From: a virus
Strand: one strand, 5' to 3'
DNA: 64,000 nucleotides
IMG/VR virus record: IMGVR_UViG_3300042311_001406
Location: 27,323-91,322 of that record
The position numbers and the translations under genes were made by a program. This document shows positions 22,979 to 61,208 of the stretch, piece by piece. The notes under the pieces were generated by a model, which was given only the letters and a program-made list of their open reading frames with translations, had not been told where the DNA came from and ran no database searches. Positions within the stretch are counted from its first letter, which is position 1; the number at the start of each line of letters is the position of its first letter.

Positions 22979-23196
22979 TCAACATGTTCAAGAAAGCCTG
23001 GTCGTGGATCGTCATCTTCTACCAGACCGCTGTCTTCCTTCGTGACCGCAACACGGAAGCTCGCCTGCGCTCTGCGCGTGAGCTCGACGACACCAACCCA
23101 GACCTGAAGACGAGGATCGACCATGAAGCCACAACCGAGCCTGGGGCGCATGCTGTTGGCGACGTCCGGCATGTTGGTCGAGAAGACAGCGTCTGA
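22975..23196 (+). CDS. small hypothetical protein
   Basis: ATGA-coupled but overlaps the next gene by 74 nt. Confidence 0.3.
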   Translation: MINMFKKAWSWIVIFYQTAVFLRDRNTEARLRSARELDDTNPDLKTRIDHEATTEPGAHAVGDVRHVGREDSV

Positions 23197-24139: not shown

Positions 24140-24218
24140 TCAGGTTGACTTCTAGTTGATCACGTGGCACAACCTCCGTCCCGTCGCTGCTCAGCGTCGA
24201 CAGGGTGGAGGAAGATGC

Positions 24219-27900: not shown

Positions 27901-28627
27901 CAACTGCAAGCAGAGCCAGCCGCTCAGCACCTCGAAGACGACGGACAAGGGCAGCGCCACCGTCATCCTTGAGTCGGCTCCAGCGACGTCGATGTCTTAC
28001 GACGACATGACGATCTGCAAGTTGGAAGCGCAGATCAAAGACCTGAAGTCGATCATTGGCAGCCTGCGACGTGGAGAGCGTGAGCGCCTGTCGACGTCGC
28101 ACATGGGCCACATCCACAAATTCACCATTCAGGGGATGAGTGGCCACTTGACGGTCGGCTTCTACGACGATGGCCGCATCGGCGAAGTCTTCGTCGAGAT
28201 GAGCAAGGAAGGCAGCACCGTCGGTGGCTTCCTGGACGCCTGGAGCAAGGCATTCTCGCTCATGCTGCAGTACGGCGCTCCGCTGACTGAAGTCCTGCAG
28301 AAGTTCGAGGGCAGCCGCTTCGAGCCATCTGGCTTCACGCTCAACGAGAACATCCGCACCTGCACATCGGTGATCGACTACGTCAGCCGCTACATGAAGA
28401 TGCTGAGCTCAAGCGCACCGAAGGCGGCTCCGATGCTCGACAGTGCCCCTGGCGACCATCAGGTTGAGGAAGGTGAAGACGTCGACGATTCGCACGTCCC
28501 GTCAAACACGCAGAAGTTCGTCGACACCAATGGTCGCATCTGTTCGTCATGCGGAAGCAGCAACCTGCGTCAAAGCGGCGCCTGCTTCGTTTGCAATGAG
28601 TGTGGCTCAAGCACGGGGTGTGGCTGA
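24926..28627 (+). CDS. nrdJ: class II (B12-dependent) ribonucleotide reductase with intein
   Basis: FNSPVWFN, QCSACF, GGKTRRAA, NPC|SEY, SCNLAS, APTGTI, SGAISKTVN; C-terminal TSCPD-like domain and Zn ribbon. Confidence 0.92.
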   Translation: MKNTVTIPSADSIDYTLSIAGDKIECRVHSIDIVNFNKRDVAIEGSGFKQKDVEAPDFWSDTAVRIVANKYFRGHDSDRENSVKQLVARVVGSIVDFLDSKDRFASATDKHSFKSVLTHLLYVQAFAFNSPVWFNLGTEVSPQCSACFILGVDDNIESILKWINDESLVFRRGSGAGVNISRIRHKNARLQGGGHASGPLSFANGANYMAGAIKSGGKTRRAAKMLVMNDNHPDVFDFIDTKSIAERVAKALIAGGFSSKFNAEGGAYELAPWQNANNSVSLYDRFLNAVLVDGDHDLVDHKGAVVRTIKARELWRKMGEAAWESGDPGLHFRDTMNRFNTVAEDGEIEASNPCCFTGETLVDTSEGKIRIDELVARSQRGEDLPMAWAFDLESSLPVLRRIVKAWKAGDATKLVRVTTDRGISVLCTPEHRWLKRNGAWVEAQHLKAGDSLRKTARWVNKDRSGRHCLNMRGTESAPNGTVWQNRYMWEQAYGPIPDGMEVHHKNGDPTDDRLSNFELIPVSDHRSEHSAGDENPRFIDVEDHVLVEAWDAVAAGRKRGSGVTPTTWNAHINSNGLKGHLPLAASPTNGGRIQGMPWAEFESKINELRSSVNDRVVSVEFIANDTATSVFDIEVEGVHNFSVTSPGAVHSVVVHNSEYLFINNTSCNLASFNLVRYMIRDGLKRVFNWRAFQRDGLAMYLCLDAIVDISSYPTPEIDETTRKYRTLGAGYANIGGMLMRMGIPYDSDEGRHMIAVITSALQGTMVCNSMKAAEAWGTFDRYEANRDHVDKVILSHYNAQVGLTYNKDDVVWNPWQHYEQTVLRDNTKIARVRNAQFTVVAPTGTIGFMMDVDTTGIEPDFSLVKYKEMVGGGYMTLVNTAMSEGLEVLGYDEETRKAIEAHVTTTGGVVEGAPGLKPEHYGVFDCAVAAFGGTRFIRPEAHIEAMAEAQPFLSGAISKTVNMPESSTVDDILDIYMKSWKLGLKAVAVYRDNCKQSQPLSTSKTTDKGSATVILESAPATSMSYDDMTICKLEAQIKDLKSIIGSLRRGERERLSTSHMGHIHKFTIQGMSGHLTVGFYDDGRIGEVFVEMSKEGSTVGGFLDAWSKAFSLMLQYGAPLTEVLQKFEGSRFEPSGFTLNENIRTCTSVIDYVSRYMKMLSSSAPKAAPMLDSAPGDHQVEEGEDVDDSHVPSNTQKFVDTNGRICSSCGSSNLRQSGACFVCNECGSSTGCG
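25988..26893 (+). mobile_element. intein (302 aa) with an HNH-type endonuclease domain
   Basis: N-terminal CFTGETLV, block B TPEH, HHKNGDPTDDRLSN, block F VFDIEVEGVHNF, C-terminal VHN|S. Confidence 0.9.
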
Positions 28628-29040: not shown

Positions 29041-31878
29041 ATGACGACACTCTTCAACGACGATGACGACGACAGCTTCTTTGACATCGTCAACATCACG
29101 GCGAAGGCAGCTGTGAACAACGCCGCCGCCGCCAAGAAGACGGAGCCCGCAGCAAAGGCGTCGTCATACGGAGACGCGAAACCCAACAAGGGCAACGAAG
29201 CATCGCAAGCCATGACGCGACTCGTCGCCACGATCCCCGGTATCCGCGCGATGCCTGTGCGTGATCGACTGCCATTCATTGAAGGATGGGCATCAGAGGC
29301 GTTCTGGTCGAAGCCGATGCCTGAACTCATGGAGCAGTGGCAGAAGGAATACGGAAACGACATCGACTACGCCTTCGTGCTTGGCGATCACTGCGGCCAG
29401 GACAGCGGTGACCTCGTCCTCGAAGCCGACAACGAAGCCGGTGAACAGTGGCTGCGCGAGAACGCGCCTGCGACACCGACGATGGTGAGCACGCGTCGCG
29501 GTTTCAACCACCGCCACTATCGCATCGACATGGCCGGACGCGGCAACCGCATCGACATCTTTGGCAGCGTCAAGAAGCACAAGAAGGCGGCCCTGGACGC
29601 CGGCTTCAAGGTTGAACTTCCGCGTGGCCGCAAGGCCACCGAAGAAGAGCGCGCCGCACGCGACAGCGAGATGGCGAAGGCGTTGGCTGCCATCCCGATG
29701 GGGCCAGTCATCGACCTGAAGTGCAACGGCGGCCAGGCCATGGCGCCAGGCGGGCGCAACAGCAAGACGCCGAACTTCCGCTACGAAGAAGTCGGCGGCC
29801 TGTGGACGATCGACATGTGGCGCGCGCGTCCCGTGTTCGACCCGAAGTGGTTCCCTGATAGCGTCTGGGCTCGTGAGCTGGCTGCCGACACGCAGCAAGG
29901 CTCGCACGCCAGCTACGACGTCGAATACTGGACCCTGGACCGTCGGGTCTCTGCGGCGATGCGGTACGCGGCCAACATGAAGCCGACGGTGAGTGGCGAG
30001 GGTGCGCACAGCTCGTTCTTGCGGAACGCCATCCTCATTGTGCGCGGCTTCGACCTCGACGTGCAGTCCGGTCGTCGCGTGCTCACGTATTGGGGCCAAC
30101 AGGTCTGTGCGCACGAACCCTGGAGCACCAAGGAGATCGAACACAAGCTCGAATCAGCACTGCAGCAGGGCAAGGAACCGATGGGGTTCAAGCTTGCTGC
30201 TCGTCGTGGCGATGAGACTGTTGGTGAACGGTACGCGGCCATGATGCGTGCCATGGCCAACGACAGCATGACCGCTGAACTCGAAGGCGACCTCATCAGC
30301 GAGGTCATGAACGACGCGGCTCCCACCTATCGCAGCGAAGGCAGCGAGGACCAGGACGATGGCACTGTCGATCCGTTCGACATGTCACCAGTCGAGGTGC
30401 CAGCGGCGTCGCCAGCCAGTGCTCTGGCCTCGCAACTCCCGCAGACGACGCCGATGTTTGGTCCCGGCTCTGGGGCGGCGACGGCAACCAAGATGACGGT
30501 GGCGGCTCGTGCGGCCGGCGCCAGCGACGCGGCGCATGGTGCCAGCGACATCGCCGACAGCGAGCGCCAAGTGCTGGCCGAGCTCGGCATGGACATCGCC
30601 GACATCCTCAGCAACCCGAAGATTGGCGTCATCTACAAGCGCATCGAAGGGAAGGTCGTTCGCCTGCCGCCGACGACGCTGAATCTGGCTCAGTTCCTGA
30701 TGCACAGTCGCATGTTCAAAGGGCGGCTCCGCAAGAACCTGATGAACCATGAGATGGAGTTCGACAACGTCGGCCTGGAGAGCATTCACACGCTGAAGAC
30801 GACGATCGATACGCTGTTCCAGGAAGACGTGCCAAAGGAACGCATCGAGGATTCTCTGGAGACTGTTGGTCTGTACTGCCGGTATGACCCCAGCCTTGAA
30901 GAGTTCGAGAAGCTCCCGCCGTGGGACGGCGAAGAACGGCTGATGCGTGTGGCCGGTGAAGTGCTGCCAGTTGAATCGGCGAGCCTGTACCTCTCAAAGG
31001 TCAAGATGGCGAAATCCATCATGGCGATGGTGGCCCGCACACTTGATCCTGGCTGCAAAGTCGACACGATTCCGATCTTCATCGGCAAGCAGGGTGCCCG
31101 GAAATCGTCGTTCTGGGAGATGCTGGCTGGGCCAAAGTTCTTCTCGGACACCGCAATGCAGAACATCGGCGGCCGTGACGAGATGTGGCTCATCTCCAGG
31201 TTCCGGGTCATCGAGATTCCTGAGATCGACGGCATGTACTCGAAGCACCAGAACGCGCAGATGAAGGCCTTCTTCTCGAAGCGACGGGATGACTACCGTC
31301 TCCCGTACGCCCGTCGCATGGTCAGCGTGGCGCGACGCAGCATCATGGTCGGCACCACGAACGAGCACGAGATTCTGAGCGACCCCACCGGCAGCCGTCG
31401 GTATTGGCCGATTCCCACCATCGGCAAGGCCCGCCTGGACCTTCTCGGGAAGTGGCGCGACCAGCTGCTGGCGGAGGCGATTCACAAGGTCTCGGCCCAC
31501 CTCGTAGCCAAAGCCGCGGGACGTGAAGAGTCAAAAGAGTACAAGGAAGGCATGTGGTGGCTCGATGACCAACAAGACGAGGAACGCTCCAAAGACAACC
31601 TGAAATACCAAGAAGACGACCCATGGCGGCCAGCGATCGAGGAGTTCCTGCGCCCCATGACACCTGACCACAAGTTCCAGGTGGCCGACGTTATCGACTA
31701 CCTCAAGCTGCCGATTGACCGAGTCGCGCGCCGAGACAGCATCAGAATTGCGAACATCCTGAACAATCTCTCCTGCCGACGCTTCAACGAGGGAAGACCA
31801 ACGACCGTCGACAAAAAAAATGGGCGCTGGTGGGAGCCGCCAGCAAGCCAAGACCCTTTGGCGAGCACGGAAGAATAG
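29041..31878 (+). CDS. primase-helicase: Prim-Pol + PriCT-like + VapE-family NTPase
   Basis: LVLEAD, STRRGFNHRHY, DLKCNGGQAMAPG; GKQGARKSS Walker A, EIPEID, RLPYAR, GTTN, DPTGSRRYWPI. Confidence 0.85.
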   Translation: MTTLFNDDDDDSFFDIVNITAKAAVNNAAAAKKTEPAAKASSYGDAKPNKGNEASQAMTRLVATIPGIRAMPVRDRLPFIEGWASEAFWSKPMPELMEQWQKEYGNDIDYAFVLGDHCGQDSGDLVLEADNEAGEQWLRENAPATPTMVSTRRGFNHRHYRIDMAGRGNRIDIFGSVKKHKKAALDAGFKVELPRGRKATEEERAARDSEMAKALAAIPMGPVIDLKCNGGQAMAPGGRNSKTPNFRYEEVGGLWTIDMWRARPVFDPKWFPDSVWARELAADTQQGSHASYDVEYWTLDRRVSAAMRYAANMKPTVSGEGAHSSFLRNAILIVRGFDLDVQSGRRVLTYWGQQVCAHEPWSTKEIEHKLESALQQGKEPMGFKLAARRGDETVGERYAAMMRAMANDSMTAELEGDLISEVMNDAAPTYRSEGSEDQDDGTVDPFDMSPVEVPAASPASALASQLPQTTPMFGPGSGAATATKMTVAARAAGASDAAHGASDIADSERQVLAELGMDIADILSNPKIGVIYKRIEGKVVRLPPTTLNLAQFLMHSRMFKGRLRKNLMNHEMEFDNVGLESIHTLKTTIDTLFQEDVPKERIEDSLETVGLYCRYDPSLEEFEKLPPWDGEERLMRVAGEVLPVESASLYLSKVKMAKSIMAMVARTLDPGCKVDTIPIFIGKQGARKSSFWEMLAGPKFFSDTAMQNIGGRDEMWLISRFRVIEIPEIDGMYSKHQNAQMKAFFSKRRDDYRLPYARRMVSVARRSIMVGTTNEHEILSDPTGSRRYWPIPTIGKARLDLLGKWRDQLLAEAIHKVSAHLVAKAAGREESKEYKEGMWWLDDQQDEERSKDNLKYQEDDPWRPAIEEFLRPMTPDHKFQVADVIDYLKLPIDRVARRDSIRIANILNNLSCRRFNEGRPTTVDKKNGRWWEPPASQDPLASTEE

Positions 31879-31895
31879 AAATCTTTGAAGTCAAA

Positions 31896-31922
31896 AGCCA
31901 CCTTCGGGTGGCTCTTTTTTTT
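31896..31922 (+). terminator. intrinsic terminator
   Basis: AGCCACC-TTCG-GGTGGCT followed by a T-run. Confidence 0.9.
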
Positions 31923-32890
31923 CTTTAGCTTGACTTTTTTCTTTGAATAGAAAAATTTTGACCAATAGAAATATCTGCAGAGCCTAAAATATTTCTATTC
32001 AAAGTTTCACTTCTTTTAGTTCAGCGATTTCTTTGAGTTCAGGCTCCGCAGTTCAAAGAAGTTGCCGGAATTTATTTGAATCGATAATGTATAGTGAGAA
32101 AAAAAAGTGACAAACAAAAGTCAGTCACTTTTCCATGTATACAGTTTTGCTGGGAGCGGTTTTCATGGCTTCAGGATGCGGCGGCCAACGACGTCGTCGC
32201 GCAGTGATCGATGCAAATATACTCTGTAGGAAAAACGCGTTAACAAAAGTCAGTCACTTTTTCAGTCACTAGCTGTGAAATCAAGGACTTACGCCCGGAA
32301 TCGGCGCGACCTGAAGCCGCGAACCACTGTCATGATAAAAGTCAGTCACTTCCTTGTAAGTCCTTGTGGCGCCTTCTCTTTTCCCTCTCTTTTTTCCTTT
32401 AGTGACTGAAAATCAGAAAATAGAAACTTTTCGGAGTCGGAGAAAAGCACGGTCGGTCTGCTGGTGCGGCGCACGCGGGAGTGCTGGCCGGTCCCTGGCT
32501 CTGGCGCTGGGCTGGGAAACTTGTTGAATTTCTGAAAAGTCAGTCACTTTTTTAAATTTGCAGCGAATTCCGTTGGCGCCACAAGGACTTACAAGGAAAT
32601 GACGAACTTAAAGTAAGGCACTGGGTCGACGGTTCACGGAAGGTCAACTTCCGGCGTAAGTCCTTGATTTTACAGCTAGTGACTGAAAAAGTGACTGAGA
32701 AGTGACAGAGATGAAATCCTACACAGTAAAGTGAACGAGTGTTCTCGTTTTGACGCCGCGTCCGGAAGCCATCCCACGGCCCCGCGTGCGCACAACAATG
32801 GCCGCAAACCCCCGAAAAAAGTCAGTCACTTTTTTGAGCAGTATATATTTTGGGCAAATTCAGATTCTGGCGTTTTCTTTGAGTTCAGAA
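31923..32890. other. putative replication origin: AT-rich, iterons, nested inverted repeats
   Basis: No credible ORF; AAAAGTCAGTCACTT at 32116, 32245, 32337, 32535 and 32817; lies directly downstream of the primase-helicase. Confidence 0.65.
32250..32698. repeat. ~450-bp imperfect nested palindrome
   Basis: Arms 32250-32300/32649-32698 (~50 bp, 2 differences); 32350-32373/32575-32598 (24 bp, perfect); 32401-32419/32530-32548 (partial). Confidence 0.9.
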
Positions 32891-33152
32891 CGACACGTAA
32901 AAAAAGCGGCACGGAGCCGCTTTCATCACGAAGCACGCCTGAGCGCTTCAAACCCTGTGAGGGGTTCAGCGCTTTGGCGGCTTCGTGATGGCTGTCAGGA
33001 CGTCATCAAGCATGGACATGTGGAACTCCGGAATCTGAGAGGGGGCGCGGCGACCAGCTGTTGGCCGCCTGCTTGTGGATAAAAAAAACCATCCACCCTG
33101 CACCCACCCAGTCCATTGCTGGACCAGATGGGTACAGAGCGAATGGCTGCCC

Positions 33153-33197: not shown

Positions 33198-34223
33198 TCA
33201 GGCCTTGGTCACCGCCGAGGCGGCGGCCAGCTCGGCTGCGGCCTGCTGCTGCACCGTTGCGTTGAGGGCCGGGAGGCTCTTCATCACCGCGGTCATGGCT
33301 GCCTCGACCGCAGCCGCCGTGGCGCGCGCCACGATGGCTTCGATGTCCGGCTGGTTGGCCTTGGCGGCTTCGAGTGCGGCCGTGGTCGCAATCGTCACGG
33401 CCTGCTCGATGTCACGGCTGTGGGACTTGACCTGGCCCATGGCCGCCTCGACTGCCGCCGTCGAGACTTCACGAGCGGCAGCCACGGTCTCGTTCTTGAG
33501 GCGGGTGGTGAAGCCTGCCTCCGCGCCGTAGTACAGACCGTCGCGCTGCTTCTGCTGGCGCACCACGCGGCTGTACATGTCCGAGCGCGCCAGGTAGCGC
33601 TCGTCGACGTACTTGATCAGCGTGTACCGCATCGACGCGTTCGTGTCGTAGACCGCCTTCTGGGTGCGGCTCGCACGCTCGAAGATCTGGCGGCGCATGC
33701 CGACACGACCAATCGTCGCGCCGGAATACACGTAGCAGAACGCAGCGATGAGGCTGTCGCCCTTGATGCCAAGTTCCGTGGCGATCTTGCGCATGTCCTC
33801 ATTGAGGCCACCACGGATCGCGCTGTTGTTGAGCTGGGCCGGGGCATCCATCTCGATGACGTCAGCCACCGAGCGGATCTGCTCAATGGTGCTGTCGATG
33901 TTCGAGTCCACGAGGAACTCTTCGACCTTGGTCACTTCGAGACGGGCGATCATCGAGAGGAACGCGTCGACGTCGGGAACGAAGTGACGCACTTCGGCCT
34001 TGTTCTCGATGAGCATGGCGAGCGTTTCTTCGGCATCGCGCAGTGCAGCGTCTTCCGGCATCTTGATCTTGCCGCCCTCACGCAAAGCAGTCGACAGGCG
34101 ACCGCCGTGGATGCGCTTGGTGTCCTCAAGGAACTGCTTGTCGGCGCGAGCTTCAGGGCTCGTGCTGCCGAGGATGGCGGTGGTGACGAAGTTGTTGAGC
34201 TTGCGGGTGATGGTGCTGGTCAT
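33198..34223 (-). CDS. hypothetical protein (putative early gene), Ala-rich helical C-terminus
   Basis: 341 aa, biased codons, AAGAGA leader, conserved promoter upstream. Confidence 0.75.
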   Translation of the reverse strand: MTSTITRKLNNFVTTAILGSTSPEARADKQFLEDTKRIHGGRLSTALREGGKIKMPEDAALRDAEETLAMLIENKAEVRHFVPDVDAFLSMIARLEVTKVEEFLVDSNIDSTIEQIRSVADVIEMDAPAQLNNSAIRGGLNEDMRKIATELGIKGDSLIAAFCYVYSGATIGRVGMRRQIFERASRTQKAVYDTNASMRYTLIKYVDERYLARSDMYSRVVRQQKQRDGLYYGAEAGFTTRLKNETVAAAREVSTAAVEAAMGQVKSHSRDIEQAVTIATTAALEAAKANQPDIEAIVARATAAAVEAAMTAVMKSLPALNATVQQQAAAELAAASAVTKA

Positions 34224-34296: not shown

Positions 34297-34331
34297 TACT
34301 ATATTATACCGCATTTTAGGCGGTATTTTCA
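34297..34331 (-). promoter_or_regulatory. conserved phage promoter motif, copy 1
   Basis: TGAAAA-N14-CGGTATAATATAGTA on the minus strand. Confidence 0.75.
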
Positions 34332-34539: not shown

Positions 34540-34980
34540 CTAGAAGCTGTCGAGGCACAGGCTCTCAGACTCGAAGTATCTGTCGCAGACACCATCAAGA
34601 TCCACTGGGATCTCGAAGCCGTTTTTACCGCAGAACCCGTAGTGGTTCAGGCAGGAGACAGCCTCATAGGTCTCGGCGTCACACGGGTTGTCGACGAAGT
34701 AGTCGTTGTCGGCGCACACCTCGGCAGCCTCGCTCTTCGTCAGGCCGCCATCACACATGGCCTCCTTGACGCAGAGGTCATGGTTGACGGTGTCGCGCGA
34801 CAGCCAGGTGATGGGACCTTTGGCTTCATTCGCGCGGTACACGACCTCGACGTCAGGCTCTTGGGTGCAGCCAGTGAGGCTGGACATCGCAAAGAGGCCG
34901 AGCGCTGCGACCCCGAAGACGACGGTGCCATAGGTGGCACCAAAGGCAAAGCACTTCAGGCATTGTTTATTCGTGATCAT
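34540..34980 (-). CDS. Cys-rich putative lipoprotein
   Basis: Hydrophobic signal followed by LTGC lipobox; acidic Cys-rich mature part. Confidence 0.65.
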   Translation of the reverse strand: MITNKQCLKCFAFGATYGTVVFGVAALGLFAMSSLTGCTQEPDVEVVYRANEAKGPITWLSRDTVNHDLCVKEAMCDGGLTKSEAAEVCADNDYFVDNPCDAETYEAVSCLNHYGFCGKNGFEIPVDLDGVCDRYFESESLCLDSF

Positions 34981-35018: not shown

Positions 35019-35053
35019 TACTATTTTATACCGTGAAATGGAGCCGCTTTTCA
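35019..35053 (-). promoter_or_regulatory. conserved phage promoter motif, copy 2
   Basis: TGAAAA-N14-CGGTATAAAATAGTA. Confidence 0.75.
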
Positions 35054-35093: not shown

Positions 35094-38000
35094 ATGAGCA
35101 TCCAGCACGCGTCCTCGACCTTCGACAGCGTCAAGCGCAACCTCGTGGAACACCTCACGAGCTTGTTCCCTCTGGAGAGCGAGGGTCGAACGTTGCGGCT
35201 CACTGGCCCAATCGTGGTCGATGATCGACTGGCGATGGATGACTACGAGGGGCAGCGCGCGGCTCGTACGGCCGGGAAGTCGTGGACGGTGCCCGTCAAA
35301 GCGCCGTTGGAACTCCTGAAGGGCGACCGGGTCATCGACCGGAAGACGGTCAAGCTGCTCGACCTGCCACGTCTGACCAACCGCGGCTCGTACATCGTTG
35401 GCGGCACCGAATACATGTTCCCAGCCCAGAAGCGCCTGCGCTCTGGCGTCTACGTGCGCACCCGCGGCGACGGCACCACCGAGGCCATGTTCAACCTCAA
35501 GAAGGGCCGCAACTTCTCGGTGGCGATGCACCCGTCGAAAGGGAACTTCGTCATCGAGATCGCGACGACCACGACGCTGCCGCTCTACCCGCTCCTGCGT
35601 GCACTCGGTGTCGAAGACAGCGAGATGGTGAAAGCCTGGGGCCGTGAAGTGTTCACGGCGAACCACATGGTCGAAAGCAGCGACGCCTACAAGAAGGCAC
35701 AGCAGCGCATCTTCGACTTGATCTCGTACAACGATCGTCGGGAAGACGCTCAGGTCCCACAGCCCGCAGACATGAACGCCGCCATCCGTGACAAGATCGG
35801 CGAGTCGTCGTGGGATGGCGACAACGTCGAGCTGACTCTCGGCTTCAAGACCGCGGGTCTCGACGGACCCAGCCTCTTGGCCGCCGCCACGAAGTTGCTC
35901 CAGGTGAACCGCAACGAGGCCAAGGAAGACAACCGTGAGTCGCTGATCCACAGCGACATCGTCGACTTGAGCGACTACATCGTCGAGCGCTACAACGACC
36001 GCCAGTTCCGTGGCCGCCTGCAGCGCCAGCTTGCCCGCATGGTGGGCAATGCCGACACCGTGACCGACGCGATCCCGCGTGACGCTTTCCAGCGCCCTGT
36101 GAACTCGCTGATGACCGAGGCCGCCATCAGCCGCAGCCCGAACCAGGGCAACCCGCTTGGCATTATGAGCGACTACACCGCAGTCACGGTTCGCGGTGAA
36201 GGTGGCATCGAGAGCGACCATGCGCTGACGCGTGGCGTGCGCGCGCTCGACCCCAGCCACCTCGGCTTTCTGGACCCAGCCCACACGCCTGAAGGCGCCC
36301 AGATCGGCACGACCCTGCACTTGGCTGCCGGTACCCGCAAGAAGGGCCGCACCTTGGTGACCGACGTGTGGAACTTCCGCAGCAAGTCTCTCATGGAGGC
36401 GACGCCGATCGACATCCACAAGGGCGTCATCGCGTTCCCCGACTTCTTTGACGTCGTCAGCAAGCGGCTCAAGCCGGTCAATGGGAAGATCAAAGCCATG
36501 AAGGCTGGCGAGATCGTTGAGGTCTTGCCTGCAGAAGTCGACATGGCTTTCACGCTCCCAGAGCAGCTCTTCGACACCAACTCGCTCGCTGTTCCGTTCT
36601 TGAGCCACAACAACGGTGTGCGCTTGATGACGGCTGCCAAGATGGGTGTGCAAAGCAAGACCCTGGTGCACCGCGAGGCGCCCAAGGTGCAGGTGCTGCT
36701 GCCCGACCAGAAGGAGACGCTTGAAGGCGCCATGGGCAAGAGCTTCAGCGTGCAGTCCCCCGTCGATGGCGTCGTCGAAAAGATCGAAGAACAGGCGATC
36801 ATCGTCAGCGGCCAGAAAGTGCCGATGCCGAAATACTTCCCGTTGAACAACGGCAACTACTGGCACGCCAAGCCCAAGGTGAAGGTCGGTGACAAGGTCA
36901 AGAAGGGTCAACTCCTGGCCGACACCAACTTCACCAAAGACGGCGTTCTGGCGCAGGGCACCAACCTGCGCGTCGCCTACGTGCCGTACAAAGGCCTCAA
37001 CTTCGAGGACGGCGTCGTCATCAGCGAAGGGGCGAGCTCGAAGCTGACCAGCGAGCACGTCTACCCGGTCGACTTCGCGTACGACAGCGAGACGGTGATC
37101 AACAAGAAGTCGTTCCAGTCGTACTTTCCGACGACGTTTACCGAAGAGCAGGTCAAGCAGATCGACGATGGCGGTCTGATCACTGTCGGCACAACGCTGA
37201 CCTACGGCATGCCCATGGTGCTGGCGCTCAAGAAGCGGCAGCTCGGCACCGAGGGTGAGCGCCTGGCCTCCATCTCCCGCATGCTGGCCACCGAGTACAG
37301 CGACGCAAGCTTGACGTGGAAGAAGCACGTTGCCGGCGAAGTGCTGGAGATCGTGCACCGCAACAATGAGATCGTCATCCACGTTCGCACCGAGGAGCCG
37401 GCGCGCATCGGCGACAAGATCGTTGGCCGCTACGGCAACAAGGGCGTAATCGTCCACATCATCCCGAACGACCAGATGCCGAAGGATGCTGGTGGCAAGC
37501 CATTGGACTTGCTGCTGAATCCGAATGGCGTCGTCGGCCGCATGAACCTGGGCCAGATTCTGGAGACCACCAGCTCACGTATCTCCGAGAAGACTGGCAA
37601 GCCGTACGTCGCCAGCGGCTTCGGTGGAAATGCCACGGAGCGCGTAACTGCTGAGCTCAAGAAGCTGGGCCTGAAGGATCACGAGACGATTCACGATCCG
37701 ATCGACAACATCGACATCCCCGGCATCCTGGTTGGCAGCCAGTACATCTACAAGCTGGAGCATCAGGCCACCAAGAAGGTGAGCTCGCGCGGTGGCGGCC
37801 CTGAAGCGCTGGAGCACGGCGAGGTCTACACCAGCGAGAACCAGCCGGCGAAGGGTTCTGGCGTCGGCGGACGCGCCATCGGCAGCATGGAGATGTACGC
37901 GCTGTTGGCCCACGGCGCGACGAAGAACATCCACGAGATCTACACGAGCAAGTCGAACTTCGATCCGGAGTTCTGGCGTGCTGTGGTCAGCGGCCTCCCG

Positions 38001-41000
38001 CTCCCGCCGCCGAAGGCAACTTTCAGCAGCGAGAAGTTCGTCACCCTGCTCAAGGGTGCCGGCATCGACGTCCGCATCGACGAAGACATGAAGGAGGCGC
38101 GCTTCGTTCCCTTCCTCGATCGCCAGGTGCTGGCCGCCAGCAACGGCGAGATCAAGAAGTCTGCGGTCATTCGCGACAAGGACGGCGCCGAGATTCCTGG
38201 TGGCCTCTTCGACCTGAAGGCGACGGGTGGCCTCAAGGGCGAGCACTACTCGCACATCACGCTGCCAGAGCCGATGCCGAGCCCGATGTTCAGCAAGGCC
38301 ATCGCAACGCTGCTTGGCATCCGTGAGGACGACATCAGCAGCGTCATCGACGGCAGCATGGAACTCAAGTCTGGTGGCTCTGGTCCGCAGGCGCTCAAGA
38401 AGGCTTTGTCTGCCATCGACGTCGACGCCCGCATCAAGGCGGTCGAGACAGAGATCGTCGGCAAGAAGGCGGCGCAGCTCAACAAGCTGCACCGTGAACT
38501 TCGCTTCCTGAAGGCGCTGAAGTCGACCGGCACCAAGCCGAGCGAGTACATGATCAGCGTGCTGCCGGTCATCCCGCCGAAGTTCCGCCCCATCTACACA
38601 CTGCCTGACGGCGCCATCCGCGTCAGCGACCTGAACTACCACTACCAGGCGCTCCTGCAGCTCAACGAGCAGATTGCTCGCATGAAGGGCAAGCCGGAGT
38701 TCAAGGACGAGTACAAGAAGGCGCTGGGCCAGGTCTACAAGGGCATCAATGGTGTGGCTGGCGTCGACGCTGGCATCGTCGACCGCAAGGGCCAGGACAT
38801 CAAGGGCATCGTCGACACGCTGTCTGGCCAAGGATCGCCGAAGGGCGGCTACGTTCACTCGACGATGCTGAAGCGCCGCCAGGACATGAGCGGCTCGGCT
38901 GTGGCCACCGTGAACCCGAAGCTGGGCCTCGACGAAGTCGGCATCCCGGAAGAGACGGCCTGGAAGATGTTCCGCCCGCTCGTGCAGCGCGAGATGTCCA
39001 TCATGGGCTTCAAGCCGAACGACGCCAAGAAGGACATCGACGACCGCACCCCCGGCGCCCGCCAGGCGTTGGAGAACGTGATGCGCTCGCGCGTCGTCAC
39101 CATCAACCGTGCGCCGTCGCTGCATAAGTTCTCGATCATGGCGTTCAAGCCTCGCCTAACCAAGGGCTACGCCGTCGAGATGAACCCGTTCGTCTTCAAC
39201 GGCTTGAACCTCGACCTCGACGGTGACGTGCTCGGCATGCATGTTCCCGTCAGCGAAGAGGCGAATGCTGAAGCGCACGACATGCTCCCCAGTAAACACC
39301 TGTACAAGCCAGGGAGCGGCGCGCTCATGCCGAAGCTCGGTCAGGAGTACGTTCTGGGTCTCTACCGGATCACGTCGCCTGGCGAGAAGACGACGAAGGT
39401 CTACAGCTCGACGACGGCAGCCATCGCCGACCTCACGGCCCGCAAGATTGCCCCGAATGCCATGGTCAGTGTCCGCGGTCTTGGCGCGACGACGCCAGGC
39501 CGTGTGCTCATCAACAGCGTGCTGCCAGCCGCGGTCCGAGACTACGGCCTCATCTACACGCAGAAGGCGACCAACGCGAAGTTGGAGGAGATCGACAAGA
39601 AGGTCGGCCGTGACGCCTTCAGCAAGGCCCTCAGCGCCATCAGCGACATTGGCCGCCAGTACGCCTACAGCACCGGCGCCAGCTTCCTGTTGAGCGACCT
39701 GCAGGTGATGACCAAGGACCGCAACGACGCGTATCGGATCGCCGATCGCAAGGCCGACGCCATCCGTCTTGGTCCCGGCACTGAGGCTGAGAAGCGCAAG
39801 AAGCTCATCGAGATCTACCAGGCTGTCAGCAACGATCTGACCAACAACATCCACCTCAAGGACAACGACAGCAAAGGTCGCAACAACATCACCGAGATGC
39901 TGACCAGCGGCGCCCGTGGTAGCCCGGAGCAGGCCCGTCAGTTGGTGGCCAACGTCGGCGTCATGCTTGACCACGAGAACCGGCCGATGCCCTTGCCTGT
40001 CCGCGGCACATACACCGAGGGCCTCGACACCGCTGAATACTTCCAGCACATGTACGGAGCCAGAAAGGGCATGATCGACAAGTCGCAGTCGGTTCGTGAC
40101 CCTGGCGCGCTCACGAAGCAGATGGTCGTCTCGGCCACCAGCTTCCGTGTGGCCATGCTCGACTGTGGCACCAAGGGTGGCATCGCTGAGACCACGAAAC
40201 GGAACGATGCGATCGATCGCTATCTGGCTGAAGACATCCCTGGTGTTGCGCGGCACAACGAAGTCGTCACGACGACGGTGCTCAACAAGGCACGGGCCAA
40301 GGGCATTGTCGACATCAAGGTACGCAGCCCGTTGACGTGCCTGGTGCCGCAGGGTGTGTGCGTGCGCTGCTACGGCCTCGATGCTGAGGGGCAGCCGCCA
40401 TCCATCGGTGCTCACGTTGGCGTCGTCGATACCCACGCCATCACGGAGCCCACGACGCAGATGGCGCTCAAGAGCTTCCACACAGGTGGTGTCGCCACCC
40501 AGAAGCAGCAGCTCAGCACCGGGTTCGATCGTGCGGCTCAGTTGTTCGAGATGCCGTCGTCGCTCCGCGGCCACGCCATCGTCGCAGAAGTCCCCGGCGT
40601 GGTTTCTTCCGTCGAGAAGAGTAACTTCGGTGGCTGGTACGTCACGATCGCCAACAACAAGCACCGCATCCCGCACGACCGCGAAGTCATCGTCAAGGTC
40701 GGCGACGTCGTCACACCTGGTCAGGCGCTGACGTCCGGCAGCGTGCGACCGCAGGACACCATGCGTTTGCGTGGTCTGCACGCAGCCCGCATGACCTTGC
40801 GCGACGACATTCGGTCCGTGTTCGCGGAAGGTGGCGTGAACCTGAAGCCGAAGACGATCGAAACGGCTGTGCGCATGCTGACCGACACGGTCCGCATCAT
40901 CAACGCGGGGGATCACCCACACCTTGTCGTCGGCGACCACGCCAGCATGAGCCAGGTGGAGAACTGGAACCGGGAGAACCGCGACAAGCATCAGGTTCGG

Positions 41001-41219
41001 TACGTCAACGAGCTCCCAGGTTCTGAGTTCTTGCCGCACAAGCAAGATGACTGGGCGCACCGGATGGCCCATAATCGCCTGAGCGAAGTGCTGACCACGC
41101 AGGCGCCAATGGCGGGCACCGCCAGCCTGAAGGGTCCCAGCCCGTTTGCGTCACTGTTCCTTGGCCGCCCCATCCCTCTTCCTGTCAGCTCGACGCCGTC
41201 TATCGGCAACAAAGGTTGA
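35094..41219 (+). CDS. rpoBC: phage multi-subunit-type RNA polymerase, fused beta-beta'
   Basis: beta: TPEG, PFLSHN, GDKIVGRYGNKG, NPNGVVGRMNLGQILE, GSMEMYAL. beta': LPVIPPKFRP, NRAPSLH, DLDGD, SGARG, GARKG, EPTTQMALKSFHTGG. Confidence 0.95.
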   Translation: MSIQHASSTFDSVKRNLVEHLTSLFPLESEGRTLRLTGPIVVDDRLAMDDYEGQRAARTAGKSWTVPVKAPLELLKGDRVIDRKTVKLLDLPRLTNRGSYIVGGTEYMFPAQKRLRSGVYVRTRGDGTTEAMFNLKKGRNFSVAMHPSKGNFVIEIATTTTLPLYPLLRALGVEDSEMVKAWGREVFTANHMVESSDAYKKAQQRIFDLISYNDRREDAQVPQPADMNAAIRDKIGESSWDGDNVELTLGFKTAGLDGPSLLAAATKLLQVNRNEAKEDNRESLIHSDIVDLSDYIVERYNDRQFRGRLQRQLARMVGNADTVTDAIPRDAFQRPVNSLMTEAAISRSPNQGNPLGIMSDYTAVTVRGEGGIESDHALTRGVRALDPSHLGFLDPAHTPEGAQIGTTLHLAAGTRKKGRTLVTDVWNFRSKSLMEATPIDIHKGVIAFPDFFDVVSKRLKPVNGKIKAMKAGEIVEVLPAEVDMAFTLPEQLFDTNSLAVPFLSHNNGVRLMTAAKMGVQSKTLVHREAPKVQVLLPDQKETLEGAMGKSFSVQSPVDGVVEKIEEQAIIVSGQKVPMPKYFPLNNGNYWHAKPKVKVGDKVKKGQLLADTNFTKDGVLAQGTNLRVAYVPYKGLNFEDGVVISEGASSKLTSEHVYPVDFAYDSETVINKKSFQSYFPTTFTEEQVKQIDDGGLITVGTTLTYGMPMVLALKKRQLGTEGERLASISRMLATEYSDASLTWKKHVAGEVLEIVHRNNEIVIHVRTEEPARIGDKIVGRYGNKGVIVHIIPNDQMPKDAGGKPLDLLLNPNGVVGRMNLGQILETTSSRISEKTGKPYVASGFGGNATERVTAELKKLGLKDHETIHDPIDNIDIPGILVGSQYIYKLEHQATKKVSSRGGGPEALEHGEVYTSENQPAKGSGVGGRAIGSMEMYALLAHGATKNIHEIYTSKSNFDPEFWRAVVSGLPLPPPKATFSSEKFVTLLKGAGIDVRIDEDMKEARFVPFLDRQVLAASNGEIKKSAVIRDKDGAEIPGGLFDLKATGGLKGEHYSHITLPEPMPSPMFSKAIATLLGIREDDISSVIDGSMELKSGGSGPQALKKALSAIDVDARIKAVETEIVGKKAAQLNKLHRELRFLKALKSTGTKPSEYMISVLPVIPPKFRPIYTLPDGAIRVSDLNYHYQALLQLNEQIARMKGKPEFKDEYKKALGQVYKGINGVAGVDAGIVDRKGQDIKGIVDTLSGQGSPKGGYVHSTMLKRRQDMSGSAVATVNPKLGLDEVGIPEETAWKMFRPLVQREMSIMGFKPNDAKKDIDDRTPGARQALENVMRSRVVTINRAPSLHKFSIMAFKPRLTKGYAVEMNPFVFNGLNLDLDGDVLGMHVPVSEEANAEAHDMLPSKHLYKPGSGALMPKLGQEYVLGLYRITSPGEKTTKVYSSTTAAIADLTARKIAPNAMVSVRGLGATTPGRVLINSVLPAAVRDYGLIYTQKATNAKLEEIDKKVGRDAFSKALSAISDIGRQYAYSTGASFLLSDLQVMTKDRNDAYRIADRKADAIRLGPGTEAEKRKKLIEIYQAVSNDLTNNIHLKDNDSKGRNNITEMLTSGARGSPEQARQLVANVGVMLDHENRPMPLPVRGTYTEGLDTAEYFQHMYGARKGMIDKSQSVRDPGALTKQMVVSATSFRVAMLDCGTKGGIAETTKRNDAIDRYLAEDIPGVARHNEVVTTTVLNKARAKGIVDIKVRSPLTCLVPQGVCVRCYGLDAEGQPPSIGAHVGVVDTHAITEPTTQMALKSFHTGGVATQKQQLSTGFDRAAQLFEMPSSLRGHAIVAEVPGVVSSVEKSNFGGWYVTIANNKHRIPHDREVIVKVGDVVTPGQALTSGSVRPQDTMRLRGLHAARMTLRDDIRSVFAEGGVNLKPKTIETAVRMLTDTVRIINAGDHPHLVVGDHASMSQVENWNRENRDKHQVRYVNELPGSEFLPHKQDDWAHRMAHNRLSEVLTTQAPMAGTASLKGPSPFASLFLGRPIPLPVSSTPSIGNKG

Positions 41220-42105: not shown

Positions 42106-42942
42106 ATGTCGTTCAACATTGGCGCAGCAATCCTTTCTGGTCTCACCGAGAAGCTGGCGATCAGCGATGCACTTGTGAATCGCTTGGGGTCCGGACGTGC
42201 CAAAAACGTATTCAACGGCAGCGATGCTGATGGAAAGAAACTGTTGCGATCGATTGAGCTCAGTGACGCCAGAGAACTCAGACAGAAACGGAAAGCAGCA
42301 GCACAAGCTGCTGTGATGCATCACGCGCCAACGAAAGTGACTGTCACCACTGCAACCAAGAGCACTGCAGCCGCCGCGAAGGCTCGTGGCTTTCGTGGGC
42401 CATCGCTGAAGCAGATGGGGGTCGGTGCCGGCATCGCCGCAGGCGTTGGTGCGGCGCTCTACGCTCGGCACCGTCGAGAGCGTGAAAAGACGGCAGCCAT
42501 CCCAGCGGCCCGGTTCAAAGAACTCCGCGGCCAGATCGCTGGTCGCCTGGCGCACCGGGTGGACATGGTGAGCAACCGCTTGCTGGATGCACACGGCTCG
42601 GACCTGTTGCGCCTCCGCGCTCAGAAGCGTCGTCTCGGTGGGATGCTGGGCCGTGCGCAGATGCACGAGACGAAGGCTGGGCTCCGAAGTGCTGGCGTGA
42701 ACACCAACGTGCGCAACAGTGCAGCATCGCTGTCGGCTGAGCGCTCCGCGGTGACGGGCTCGACCGCCAATGCCGCCACCAAAATCACCCGTCGTCCGGC
42801 ACCACCTGCAGGCGGCGGCATGGCGAACGATGCCACCAAGGTCGTGAAGACGCCGCCGCTGCCGGCTGCTACAGGTGGAGCTGACCACACGCGCACTGGG
42901 CTCGGGTGGCACCTCCAGAAGCCGAAGGTTCGCGCTGCATGA
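42106..42942 (+). CDS. basic K-x-A modular protein with a glycine zipper
   Basis: EKLAI, EKTAA; GVGAGIAAGVGAAL. Confidence 0.65.
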   Translation: MSFNIGAAILSGLTEKLAISDALVNRLGSGRAKNVFNGSDADGKKLLRSIELSDARELRQKRKAAAQAAVMHHAPTKVTVTTATKSTAAAAKARGFRGPSLKQMGVGAGIAAGVGAALYARHRREREKTAAIPAARFKELRGQIAGRLAHRVDMVSNRLLDAHGSDLLRLRAQKRRLGGMLGRAQMHETKAGLRSAGVNTNVRNSAASLSAERSAVTGSTANAATKITRRPAPPAGGGMANDATKVVKTPPLPAATGGADHTRTGLGWHLQKPKVRAA

Positions 42943-44801
42943 CGCTGCTTGGTCTCCACGACGACGATGATGACGGCGACTCAGGGATCGAGGTGGTGTC
43001 TCGTGCGCCGCTGCGATCTCTGGCTCGCAACTTCGAGTCGAAGGAGAGCCGAGAGCGTTTGCGCGACGCCTTCAACAGGGCGCGTGATGCCGCGGCTGAG
43101 GCCAAGGGTGGCGTGGCTGGCGGCATGTGGGTCGACAAGGACGGCGTGACGTGGACCACGCCGTCCAACATGATCGCCAACCGCATCTACATCAAGCGAG
43201 ACACGCCGTATTCGTTCATCGATCGACCGTGCATGAAGACGGTGTTTGATGATGATCACCGCTTCATTCTGATGAAGACGGCTCGTCAGGTGAGCAAAAG
43301 CACGACGCTGGCTGGCCGTCTGATGCTCAACACCGAGGTCTTGGCGCCGTACGCCGCCCTGTTCCTGAGCCCCAGCTACGACCAGACCTCGAAGTTCAGT
43401 CACCAGCGTCTTGGCCCCACGATCATGCAGAGCCCGCACCTCAAGGCTCGCATGAGCCGAGAGATGCTGAACAACGTCCTGGAGAAAGAGTTCATCGACG
43501 GCAGCCGCATCTATCTGAGCTACGCCAAGAGCGACGCGGATCGCGCACGTGGTATCTCGGTCGACGAAATCGACTTCGATGAGGTGCAGGACATGCACCT
43601 CAGCGCCATCGAGCCGGTCGTCCAGGAGTCGCTGTTCACCAGCGTGCACAAGAAGCGGTTCTACAGCGGCACACCGAAGTCGTTCAGCAACGGCATTGAA
43701 GGGCTGTGGCGCAACAGCGACCAGCGTGAGTGGATGGTGGCCTGCCGTCACCATTCTCCGGCCTATCACCAGAAGTTGACGATCAAGAACATCGGCAACG
43801 AAGGCCCAGTGTGTGTCAAGTGCGGGAACCTGCTCAACACGCTCGACGGCCTCTGGGTGCAGACCGTCACCGTGCTGCCTGACGGGAAGAAGCCAGAGAC
43901 GCACGGCTACCACCTGCCGCAGATCATCTTCCCAACGAACAAGGTCGTTCTCGGGAAGAAGCCGAATGGCAAAGACATCAAGGGCTTCCTGGACTGGGAT
44001 GACCTGCTGCTCCGCCTCTCGAACCCGAACGCTGAGATCGCGACGATTCAGAACGAAATCTTTGGTGAGAGTGCCGACAGCGCCAGCAAACCCATCAGCG
44101 AGGAGAAGCTGCGGTCACTGTGCCACAAAGACCGGCCCATGCCCACGGAGTACCCGGCCTGGGCGCAGGGCACGTACACCTTCGCTGGCGTCGACTGGGG
44201 CATGGGTCTCGGCTCATCGACGGTGCTTTCGATTGGCCAGTTCGACCCTCGCGACCCGTCGAAGTTCCGCATCATCTTCTGCAAGCGATGGGACGGTGGA
44301 GACGCCGACCCAGAAATCTGCGTGCCGTTGATCTTGCAGTATTGCCGCTGGTTCCGCGTCAAGCGCCTGCACGCCGACTGGGGTGGCGGCGCTGGCATCA
44401 ACAGCCGCATCATGGATGAACTCGGCCCAGAGTTCATCACGACGAACTACTGGTCGACGAACATGAGCGCCAAGATGGCGAACTACGACGACCGCCACAA
44501 CCGCTTCGTTTTGAACCGGAGCATGACGATCACGAAGTTCTTCCAAGCGCTGCGTCGAGATTCGATTCAGATCGCCTTCCGATGGGAGGACTACCGTGAG
44601 TTCTCCGTCGACATCCTCAACGTGTTCCGTGAGGAGCGCAAGAACGAGGACTACTACTACGATCACCCGCCAGGCACACAGGATGACGCGATGCACTCGC
44701 ACATCTACTGCTGGCTGGTGGCCTGCTGGCACCGCATCAACGAGAACTTCGTCGAGGACGCTCGTATCACTGGCAGTACGCACAACCCGTTGATGGTGTG
44801 A
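42939..44801 (+). CDS. terL: terminase large subunit (GpA-like)
   Basis: ARQVSKST Walker A, RARG, FDEVQD Walker B, SGTP, AGVDWG nuclease, QDDAMHS. Confidence 0.9.
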   Translation: MTLLGLHDDDDDGDSGIEVVSRAPLRSLARNFESKESRERLRDAFNRARDAAAEAKGGVAGGMWVDKDGVTWTTPSNMIANRIYIKRDTPYSFIDRPCMKTVFDDDHRFILMKTARQVSKSTTLAGRLMLNTEVLAPYAALFLSPSYDQTSKFSHQRLGPTIMQSPHLKARMSREMLNNVLEKEFIDGSRIYLSYAKSDADRARGISVDEIDFDEVQDMHLSAIEPVVQESLFTSVHKKRFYSGTPKSFSNGIEGLWRNSDQREWMVACRHHSPAYHQKLTIKNIGNEGPVCVKCGNLLNTLDGLWVQTVTVLPDGKKPETHGYHLPQIIFPTNKVVLGKKPNGKDIKGFLDWDDLLLRLSNPNAEIATIQNEIFGESADSASKPISEEKLRSLCHKDRPMPTEYPAWAQGTYTFAGVDWGMGLGSSTVLSIGQFDPRDPSKFRIIFCKRWDGGDADPEICVPLILQYCRWFRVKRLHADWGGGAGINSRIMDELGPEFITTNYWSTNMSAKMANYDDRHNRFVLNRSMTITKFFQALRRDSIQIAFRWEDYREFSVDILNVFREERKNEDYYYDHPPGTQDDAMHSHIYCWLVACWHRINENFVEDARITGSTHNPLMV

Positions 44802-48008: not shown

Positions 48009-48734
48009 TCAGACTTGCGTCATGATCTCTTGGGTTGAAGCGTCGAACGAATAGTGCCCGAAGGCGCCGATGATGACCTGTGCTGCATGGCGCAAGTCCT
48101 TCACGACATGAGGAGGCGTGGAGGACAAGAGCGCACCCAGTGGCTTCCCGTACGCAAAAGAGCGCAGCGCCACGTAGTCGACATCATTCGCCTTGACCTC
48201 GATGTCTTTGCCGCGGAATCGCAGGTCGACCGAGCATTCGCCCTTTGACATCGCTTTGACGACGACGCCGACCTCGTCGCCACGCGTCGTGATCATGGTG
48301 ATGCCCGTGTACAAGTTGAAGCCGAACGAGTCGTCGCGAATGGAGCCGACCACGTCTGTGTAGAAAGTGATGCGGCAGGCATTCAGCGCTTTTTCTGTGG
48401 CATGCCCGATGGACGCTTTGACGGCATCCATCAGCAGCTCTTCGATGGTGACCATCGAGAGGCCTGCCAAACCTTCAGCGTTGTAGGAATCGTCAGCCGA
48501 GACGATGTCGTTGACGGGCTTCCCGTTCAGCCGAAGAGAGACGGCCAGCGTCTCAGGGTTGATGGAGAGAAGCGCCCGACAGTATGCCGGCAGCAGGTCG
48601 CCGCTGCTCAGCTTGATCTTCTGCATCAGCGACATTCTGAGGATGGGTTTTTGCGTTGGGCTGACGCCGGTGATTCCACCCTGCAGGAGGGTGATGATCG
48701 ACTGGTGAACGATGCTCGCGTTGACGTTTGACAT
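48009..48734 (-). CDS. hypothetical protein, first gene of the leftward cluster
   Basis: GGGAG RBS; conserved promoter upstream. Confidence 0.7.
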   Translation of the reverse strand: MSNVNASIVHQSIITLLQGGITGVSPTQKPILRMSLMQKIKLSSGDLLPAYCRALLSINPETLAVSLRLNGKPVNDIVSADDSYNAEGLAGLSMVTIEELLMDAVKASIGHATEKALNACRITFYTDVVGSIRDDSFGFNLYTGITMITTRGDEVGVVVKAMSKGECSVDLRFRGKDIEVKANDVDYVALRSFAYGKPLGALLSSTPPHVVKDLRHAAQVIIGAFGHYSFDASTQEIMTQV

Positions 48735-48800: not shown

Positions 48801-48835
48801 TTCTATTTTATGCCGTGATCTACTGGTGTTTTTTA
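48801..48835 (-). promoter_or_regulatory. conserved phage promoter motif, copy 3
   Basis: TAAAAA-N14-CGGCATAAAATAGAA. Confidence 0.7.
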
Positions 48836-49249: not shown

Positions 49250-49440
49250 ACATCCCCCGATTTGAAGCAGGCGCCATCGCCAACATTGGCTTTGAGCTGA
49301 AAGCGTCCGTCACCAAGGTCGTCTGCGTCAACCGCGAAGCCTGCGACGACGACTCTGGTGCGCACTCGACCAAGACGCTGCGACATGTCTGTCATCGTCG
49401 TCTCGTCTTTGGCGGGGCTGTTGCTGCTGATGCTGTTCAT
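49141..49440 (-). CDS. hypothetical protein
   Basis: ATGA-coupled to the helicase stop with AGGAGG; overlaps the next ORF. Confidence 0.35.
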   Translation of the reverse strand: MNSISSNSPAKDETTMTDMSQRLGRVRTRVVVAGFAVDADDLGDGRFQLKANVGDGACFKSGDVCVRHEKYGWMSMMRLIHSPQPRSPEPEQNHPPRAG

Positions 49441-61131: not shown

Positions 61132-61168
61132 GAGCGGCGGCCCTCAAAGTCGCCGCTCGGTTGTTGTT
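61132..61168 (+). terminator. stem-loop upstream of the capsid gene (attenuator or mRNA stabiliser)
   Basis: GAGCGGCGGC-CCTCAAA-GTCGCCGCTC followed by GGTTGTTGTT. Confidence 0.5.
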
Positions 61169-61208
61169 GACCACCACCTCAATTCATCTCGCACAGGGAG
61201 AACGATAC

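Follow-up and report, generated by a model that had tools for sequence, protein, structure and literature searches.

The window described here is a stretch of 64,000 nucleotides (nt) of viral DNA (positions 27,323 to 91,322 of the IMG/VR record IMGVR_UViG_3300042311_001406), which makes up the right-hand 64 kb of a 91-kb contig with a CheckV completeness of about 50%. It was found to encode, at window positions 35094 to 41219, an RNA polymerase (RNAP) in which the counterparts of the bacterial beta and beta' subunits form one unbroken polypeptide of 2041 amino acids (aa). What is new is a phage RNAP of the multisubunit type that is a single chain, lacks the Zn ribbon of beta', comes without alpha, and is accompanied by a sigma factor of the phage's own. 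We consider it probable that this polypeptide is a catalytic core that works with the phage sigma as a two-protein holoenzyme.

A reading of the letters and open reading frames (ORFs) of this stretch, referred to below as the original prediction, had proposed a single-chain beta-beta' RNAP of 2041 aa at this locus, and this was borne out by the ORF, by Pfam, and by alignment. Seven Pfam families were matched by the one chain, with Rpb2_3, Rpb2_6, and Rpb2_7 spanning aa 351-955 and Rpb1_1, Rpb1_2, Rpb1_4, and Rpb1_5 spanning aa 1129-1811; the scores include 153.6 bits for Rpb2_6 (cut-off 23.4), 87.8 for Rpb1_5, and 79.3 for Rpb1_2. The best phage families, PHROG 24349 and 25354 (E-values of 9e-62 and 2e-110), are both unnamed. 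Judged by these matches, the protein consists of bacterial-type two-barrel large subunits in a compact single chain from a tailed phage. The features of the gene, located mostly with a 54-row alignment (the query, 22 fused relatives, three isolate phages, E. coli, and 27 other bacteria), are as follows, in window positions.

35094 to 41219, plus strand: single-chain beta-beta' RNAP gene, one open frame of 2041 aa (Pfam and PHROG matches)
35094 to 38093, plus strand: beta module, aa 1-1000, without the E. coli segments SI1 (228-345), SI2 (938-1049), and In11 (1128-1181) (alignment)
36114 to 36194, plus strand: Rif cluster I counterpart, aa 341-367, with nearly every rifampicin-contact residue replaced (alignment)
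37248 to 37286, plus strand: beta flap-tip helix, aa 719-731, predicted contact for sigma region 4 (alignment and complex model)
37410 to 37445, plus strand: beta double-psi barrel motif GDKIVGRYGNKG, aa 773-784, corresponding to the conserved GDK..GRHGNKG lysines (alignment)
38061 to 38120, plus strand: beta/beta' junction, aa 990-1009, no linker, modelled as a beta hairpin
38094 to 41219, plus strand: beta' module, aa 1001-2041, without the Zn ribbon, SI3 (E. coli 945-1131), and the C-terminal tail (1363-1407) (alignment)
38199 to 38264, plus strand: Zn-ribbon deletion site, aa 1036-1057, GGLFDLKATGGLKGEHYSHITL (alignment)
38592 to 38732, plus strand: clamp coiled-coil, aa 1167-1213, predicted docking site for sigma region 2 (models)
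39207 to 39227, plus strand: catalytic Mg motif NLDLDGD, aa 1372-1378 (D1374, D1376, and D1378), aligned with NADFDGD
40053 to 40127, plus strand: bridge helix, aa 1654-1678, read directly against the E. coli helix sequence, and lying inside the BLASTP match to E. coli beta'
40155 to 40376, plus strand: second Zn site, C1691, C1749, C1756, and C1759, corresponding to E. coli C814, C888, C895, and C898 (alignment)
40440 to 40490, plus strand: trigger-loop base ITEPTTQMALKSFHTGG, aa 1783-1799, with FHTGG; the post-SI3 segment comes directly after

By alignment, the catalytic parts of the enzyme are intact: the beta motif reads GDK..GRYGNKG, and the three Asp residues of NLDLDGD are unchanged in 23 family members. 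Relative to E. coli, the chain is 708 aa short, of which 635 are the sum of the absent segments listed above, beta' 1-18, 64-95, and 156-176, and two short gaps, and these losses coincide with known lineage-specific inserts and the Zn ribbon. The bacterial beta plus beta' pairs in the sample total 2250-2958 aa, and the phage chain is about 210 to 300 aa below the smallest of them. Matches of the chain to Peptidase_M23 (27.3 bits, under the cut-off), RnfC_N, biotin-lipoyl, and ATP-synthase barrel families fall on the sandwich-barrel hybrid domains of the two modules and were not counted as added functions.

The rifampicin pocket had been called divergent, and seven substitutions were indeed found in Rif cluster I (Q513R, F514S, D516N, H526D, R529A, S531T, and L533R in E. 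coli numbering). Several of the altered positions are classical resistance sites, and the replacement of these contact residues suggests that the enzyme would be insensitive to rifampicin.

The junction, predicted near position 38090, was placed by the alignment at nt 38094 (about aa 1000), where the beta C-end LKGAGIDVRIDEDMK passes straight into the beta' N-end EARFVPFLDRQVL. In an AlphaFold2 model of aa 851-1450, which had a predicted local distance difference test (pLDDT) score of 79.6 and a predicted template modelling (pTM) score of 0.74, the junction forms a hairpin of two strands (model residues 141-146 and 151-156, with pLDDT values there of 84-95), the clamp helices span aa 1179-1197 and 1201-1222, and the overall fold resembles the N-terminal halves of bacterial beta' (Foldseek E-value 2e-31, TM 0.6). 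A search with the junction only (aa 901-1200) yielded 703 clusters at 50% identity with E <= 1e-30, and among the matches listed nearly all were one stretch running through the junction in proteins of 2000-3000 aa. The fusion is therefore not an assembly artefact, because the clusters match in a single stretch across the junction.

The beta' Zn ribbon of cellular enzymes is part of the RNA-exit region and modulates termination. Its absence from the phage protein was confirmed: E. coli beta' 64-95, a segment of 32 residues with four Cys, is without a counterpart, and GGLFDLKATGG continues directly into LKGEHYSHITL. At this site, 0 to 4 residues and no Cys were found in 23 of 23 family members and in the Salmonella phage Arash and Vibrio phage D69, whereas the segment is present in E. 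coli, in Cobetia phage Carin-5, and in 26 of the 27 other bacteria. The retention of the C-terminal Zn site had also been predicted correctly, as all four of its Cys are in place. In the beta' of one Patescibacteria metagenome-assembled genome, the Zn-ribbon segment is kept and neither Zn site contains a Cys (LSQA is found at the second); by its sequence, this may be a bacterial enzyme without bound zinc.

The fused family is very large and metagenomic, and it has cultured members. In a search of 5.8 billion proteins, about 120 fused homologues were among the matches listed, with lengths of 2007-2106 aa and identities of 33-75% at 99% coverage. About a quarter of the listed homologues are extended to 2300-3000 aa by inteins; the copy in this contig, unlike those, has none. 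The nearest isolates found with tblastn were the Vibrio phages D69, D148, and D181 (187 kb) and Salmonella phage Arash (181 kb), and the implication of the original prediction that such enzymes are known from uncultured phages only does not hold. The RNAPs of these isolates are 28-30% identical to the query over 72-95% of its length and share a clade with it (Shimodaira-Hasegawa-like approximate likelihood ratio test (SH-aLRT) 99), and those of Arash and D69 likewise have beta fused to beta', lack the Zn ribbon, and keep the second Zn site. The query chain is unbroken, whereas that of the isolates is split inside beta' at about query aa 1470, giving proteins of 1525 aa and about 607 aa. The first of these carries beta with the first ~470 residues of beta', and the two genes lie apart, with other genes or a homing endonuclease between them. 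In Arash, the two pieces are gp206 and gp216, and the sigma factor is gp10; the genomes of the isolates are ~180 kb, and no alpha homologue was found in those of Arash and D69. In the Arash paper, the two pieces carry the labels beta and beta' subunit, and their fusion is not commented on (PMC10585845). Since unbroken chains are the rule and the isolates group together as a single sister clade, the tree, which is unrooted, seems more simply read as showing that the chain was split secondarily in the isolates.

In a scan of viral contigs with the single protein as query, one distant beta' only was recovered (23% identity, IMGVR_UViG_3300009068_000022). It is a separate phage beta' of 1415 aa, which lies on a long branch and groups with Patescibacteria beta' in a beta'-only tree; this grouping could mean a capture of more recent date or be an artefact of the long branch.

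The relationship of the fused family to bacteria was evaluated by phylogeny. Among the matches listed, the 80 best bacterial loci were 26-31% identical to the RNAP. In a tree of 1925 columns (LG+G4), the 28 bacteria, from ten or more phyla, all fell on one side of a branch of 0.78 substitutions per site (SH-aLRT 100), and on the opposite side were the fused family (SH-aLRT 98) plus the Arash/D69 group (SH-aLRT 99, branch 0.57). The same split between bacteria and phages was obtained in the beta'-only tree under LG+C20+F+G4. The original prediction had named nesting within a bacterial rpoBC clade as the sign of a recent capture, and the RNAP was found outside all 28 sampled bacteria. It is not nested within any sampled bacterial phylum, and the trees do not establish a particular deep position for it. 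The fused members diverge from one another down to 33% identity, so that the family itself is deep. The trees lack archaeal, eukaryotic, and bona fide sequences of the multi-subunit-RNAP-encoding Caudovirales (mReC), for which Carin-5 served as a stand-in; the place of Carin-5 in the concatenated tree means little, because its beta is poorly aligned there (49% of columns filled), and its branch in the beta'-only tree is 9.7. An ancient origin of the RNAP from within early Bacteria is compatible with these trees, which have no archaeal outgroup.

The original prediction had also stated that no alpha or sigma gene is recognisable in the window. In line with this, no Sigma70_r2, Sigma70_r4, or alpha domain was detected by Pfam in the window or the whole 91-kb contig, but a divergent gene of the sigma-70 family was found just outside the window, directly after a large peptidase gene. 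In contig positions, these genes are:

21394 to 24285: 963-aa M23-peptidase protein, a probable cell-wall hydrolase of the virion, with the sigma gene starting after a 2-nt gap
24288 to 25019: sigma-70-family gene, 243 aa, 2.3 kb left of the first base of the window (Arash gp10 tblastn, Pfam, and PHROG)

Arash gp10, which is annotated as a sigma factor, matches contig positions 24339 to 24860 with an E-value of 1e-11 (tblastn), and the 243-aa protein matches Pfam Sigma70_r3 at 28.4 bits (cut-off 25.3) and PHROG_351 at 9e-8. A profile of 25 homologues covers regions 2-4 of SigA, SigF, FliA, and RpoS (E-value 2.8e-12), and a structural model of the protein (pLDDT 86) matched whole sigma chains with a Foldseek probability of 1.00. 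By profile and fold, the product appears to be a divergent sigma-70 relative, and the contig has one copy. Sigma homologues are carried at the same genome position by Arash and D69, and metagenomic homologues of sigma and RNAP were found on contigs of 182300, 109641, and 76458 bp, their co-occurrence being read from the equal sizes of the contigs only. The order of M23 peptidase and sigma seen here is that of Arash gp8-gp9-gp10, in that a large virion gene for a cell-wall hydrolase precedes sigma in both.

The fit of sigma to the core was evaluated by modelling a complex of sigma with RNAP aa 900-1330 and 640-790, alongside three controls. The median run scored 0.71 and the best control 0.20. 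Of 80 solved complexes, 58 attain the mark used, as do 2 of 110 mismatched pairs; the pass of this pair may reflect likeness to known holoenzymes, a textbook pair with many solved structures, and is not proof of binding. The runs share at least 61% of contacts, and the partner pLDDT was at least 76. In the models, sigma residues 43-62 lie on the clamp coiled-coil, the contact with the lowest error, and residues 223-234 lie on the flap-tip helix.

Cellular RNAPs assemble from alpha2, beta, beta', and omega. A search for the alpha families PF01000 and PF01193 was negative for this contig and for Arash, D69, and Carin-5, whose genomes are complete, whereas both families were detected in 14 of 14 control genomes.

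In the holoenzyme that we propose, the beta C-end is joined directly to the beta' N-end, two ends that adjoin in the clamp of cellular enzymes too, and the fusion guarantees a 1:1 stoichiometry and probably dispenses with the alpha-dimer assembly platform. The 243-aa sigma would give the core its promoter specificity, with region 2 on the clamp coiled-coil and region 4 on the flap-tip helix. The holoenzyme would then transcribe phage genes from phage-specific promoters of the -35/-10 type, would not depend on the host enzyme, and would be unaffected by rifampicin. We infer this activity, the partnership with sigma, and the independence from alpha from the anatomy of the chain, the absence of alpha matches, and the company that the gene keeps in its relatives.

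Several points weigh against this proposal. The Pfam models of sigma regions 2 and 4 were silent on the sigma-like protein, and no genome-wide promoter motif was found in about 50 upstream regions, for which genes were called by GC content at third codon positions (GC3). The contig covers only about half of the genome, and the rest could encode a divergent alpha-like or other subunit; the alpha or omega of the host could also be used. Replication genes lie on one side of the RNAP gene and the terminase gene on the other, and the RNAP gene is not beside a portal gene as it is in Arash. The Arash particle preparation, which bears on when the enzyme acts, also contained ribonucleotide reductases and other enzymes, and its authors allow for intracellular carry-over (PMC10585845). 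No family member has yet been studied biochemically or otherwise by experiment.

When the enzyme would act is the point on which a competing account fares best. In that account, which we regard as close to evenly balanced, the RNAP is not packed in the virion and is a middle or late enzyme: the host RNAP would read the early genes, including those for the RNAP and sigma, from sigma-70-like promoters, and the phage holoenzyme would follow. The promoter-like sites and the phage genes that neighbour the RNAP gene are listed here in window positions.

24926 to 28627: class II (B12-dependent) ribonucleotide reductase, with an intein inside that contains an HNH endonuclease (Pfam Intein_splicing and HNH_3)
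29041 to 31878: VapE-type primase-helicase
34297 to 34310, 35019 to 35032, and 48801 to 48814, minus strand: three TATAAT-type promoter candidates, GG[TC]ATAA[AT]ATAG[TA]A, with GAAAA/AAAAA about 16 nt upstream
42906 to 44801: large terminase
49437 to 50885: helicase
61161 to 62126: candidate major head protein (phrog_2522, E-value 3e-5), with a GC3 of 0.89, the contig maximum, and not of the Gp23 type

The three promoter candidates compare with 0.01 copies expected by chance, and each faces a leftward ORF (33198-34223, 34540-34980, and 48009-48734). These TATAAT-type sites beside the RNAP gene and the place of that gene between replication genes and terminase speak for this account. The K-x-A sequence, a proposed virion-processing code, is also not enriched in the RNAP (11 seen versus 11.7 expected), and the Arash particle proteome was possibly contaminated by abundant cytoplasmic proteins (PMC10585845). 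Against this account, mass spectrometry of Arash virions detected gp206 more than any other protein (3516 spectra), with 1210 spectra for gp216; the major capsid protein yielded fewer spectra than the RNAP chains, and the coverage of sigma gp10 was 100% (PMC10585845). Arash is the only family member whose RNAP and sigma are known from particles. In addition, the sigma gene of the query lies within a block of large virion-type genes, after the M23 peptidase as in Arash gp8-gp10, and the Arash RNAP gene comes after the portal gene. We hold tentatively, at somewhat less than even confidence, that RNAP and sigma are packed in the virion and injected for early transcription. The fullest version, a self-sufficient two-protein machine without alpha, omega, and Zn ribbon that is packed and injected with its sigma, appears unlikely as a whole.

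A second account separates sigma from the core. T4 gp55 and SPO1 gp28 redirect the host RNAP, and the sigma-like protein might do the same, with the single-chain RNAP initiating alone or with an unrelated phage factor, like the non-virion enzymes of phiKZ and AR9. Sigmas that are thought to act on the host RNAP occur in many large phages that encode no RNAP themselves (PMC7824862, PMC13282480), and on this contig 37 kb separate the sigma gene from the RNAP gene. We consider this account improbable, in view of the conservation of sigma with the RNAP in Arash, D69, and at least three metagenomic contigs (by the equal sizes noted above), the fact that the core, though stripped in other respects, keeps its clamp coiled-coil and its flap-tip helix, and the sigma-beta-beta' operon of Carin-5. 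The margin of the complex model over its controls points the same way, though the pass of a textbook pair may come from its likeness to solved structures.

A third account, recent capture of a bacterial rpoB-rpoC pair that was fused and shrunk in the phage, draws on motifs much nearer to bacterial beta and beta' than those of phiKZ-type or crAss-type enzymes and on the fact that all matches among solved structures were bacterial, but it is very improbable given the 26-31% identity across the best 80 bacterial loci among the matches listed, the position of 28 of 28 bacteria beyond 0.78 plus 0.57 substitutions per site with agreement from the site-heterogeneous model, and the depth of the family itself.

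Two further observations concern the setting of the phage. DNA of this phage is contained in lake-water metagenome runs; among the listed runs containing the phage there was no RNA dataset, and four wastewater runs labelled RNA-Seq cDNA have part of the RNAP gene and may be DNA. Just after the primase-helicase gene, positions 31880 to 33070 of the window are AT-rich (48% GC) and non-coding and contain AAAGTCAGTCACTTT in five direct copies (0.06 expected by chance) together with inverted partial copies, and this segment looks like an iteron-bearing replication origin.

If the proposed holoenzyme exists, it would be the smallest natural cellular-type RNAP still using a sigma factor, and, if the enzyme is injected as well, a very large undescribed group of ~180-kb phages would transcribe independently of the host and insensitively to rifampicin from the first minute of infection. 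The fused family offers a natural minimal model for the roles of the alpha platform and the Zn ribbon and for the recognition of a far-diverged core by sigma. Its size (703 clusters) and its culturable members on Salmonella and Vibrio make these questions testable now. In the literature, we found no description of a fused phage beta-beta' RNAP with a sigma partner. Phage records call the RNAP pieces simply 'beta subunit' or 'hypothetical protein', and pipelines that seek separate beta and beta' genes, as was done for mReC, would probably miss the family.

Fusion of the two subunits is familiar from bacteria. In the natural rpoB-rpoC fusions of Helicobacter and Wolbachia and in the engineered E. 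coli beta::beta' protein, the beta C-end is likewise joined to the beta' N-end in a functional chain. These are full-size cellular enzymes that fall inside their own clades, keep the Zn ribbon, and use alpha2 and omega, whereas the phage RNAP is shorter, lies outside bacteria, and has no Zn ribbon.

The original prediction had likened the enzyme to the published mReC lineage, and this likeness is doubtful. The two share phage beta and beta' sequences that can be aligned with cellular enzymes and lie outside bacterial clades (the sampled ones, in the case of the fused family), an origin in aquatic metagenomes, and compactness. However, the definition of mReC has beta and beta' in separate proteins, each 800 aa or longer (Weinheimer and Aylward 2020, PMC7481178). 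Many mReC pairs are ~1000 + 900 aa, and every phage row read in Supplementary Data 2 assigns beta (900-1521 aa) and beta' (887-1391 aa) to two ORFs (PMC7481178); the text of the paper mentions fusion for crAssphage only. The mReC capsid is of the Gp23 type (PF07068 / VOG11186), whereas no PF07068 match was found in the genomes of Arash and D69, which are complete, or in this contig, which is ~50% complete; PF07068 is present in Carin-5 and Rhizobium phage RHph_Y65. Both of the latter phages have separate beta and beta' subunits, and Carin-5, with a compact sigma-beta-beta' operon (beta of 1083 aa and beta' of 927 aa) and the Zn ribbon kept, probably represents the mReC-type lineage in culture. 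The fused family is probably a lineage separate from mReC, or at least an unreported one; in the trees, the phage lineages are joined by long branches.

The RNAPs of the jumbo phages phiKZ and AR9 resemble the query as phage two-barrel enzymes that work without alpha or omega homologues and of which a virion version exists (PMC7598289, PMC13282480). They differ in being made of four or five very divergent polypeptides, whereas the query is one chain that Pfam recognises clearly. In place of a sigma-70-family partner, which they lack, the jumbo-phage enzymes rely on gp68 or gp226 (PMC7824862, PMC13282480). The crAss-like gp66 and YonO RNAPs share with the query the presence of both barrels in one polypeptide, and gp66 is reported to be packed in virions and injected (bioRxiv 2020.03.07.982082). 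Beyond DxDxD, gp66 and YonO have no recognisable similarity to beta or beta' profiles (PMC7481178), whereas the query matches seven beta and beta' Pfam families. Whereas the known phage RNAPs are either split into divergent pieces (phiKZ and AR9) or unrecognisably remote (crAss and YonO), the fused family keeps bacterial motifs that can still be read.

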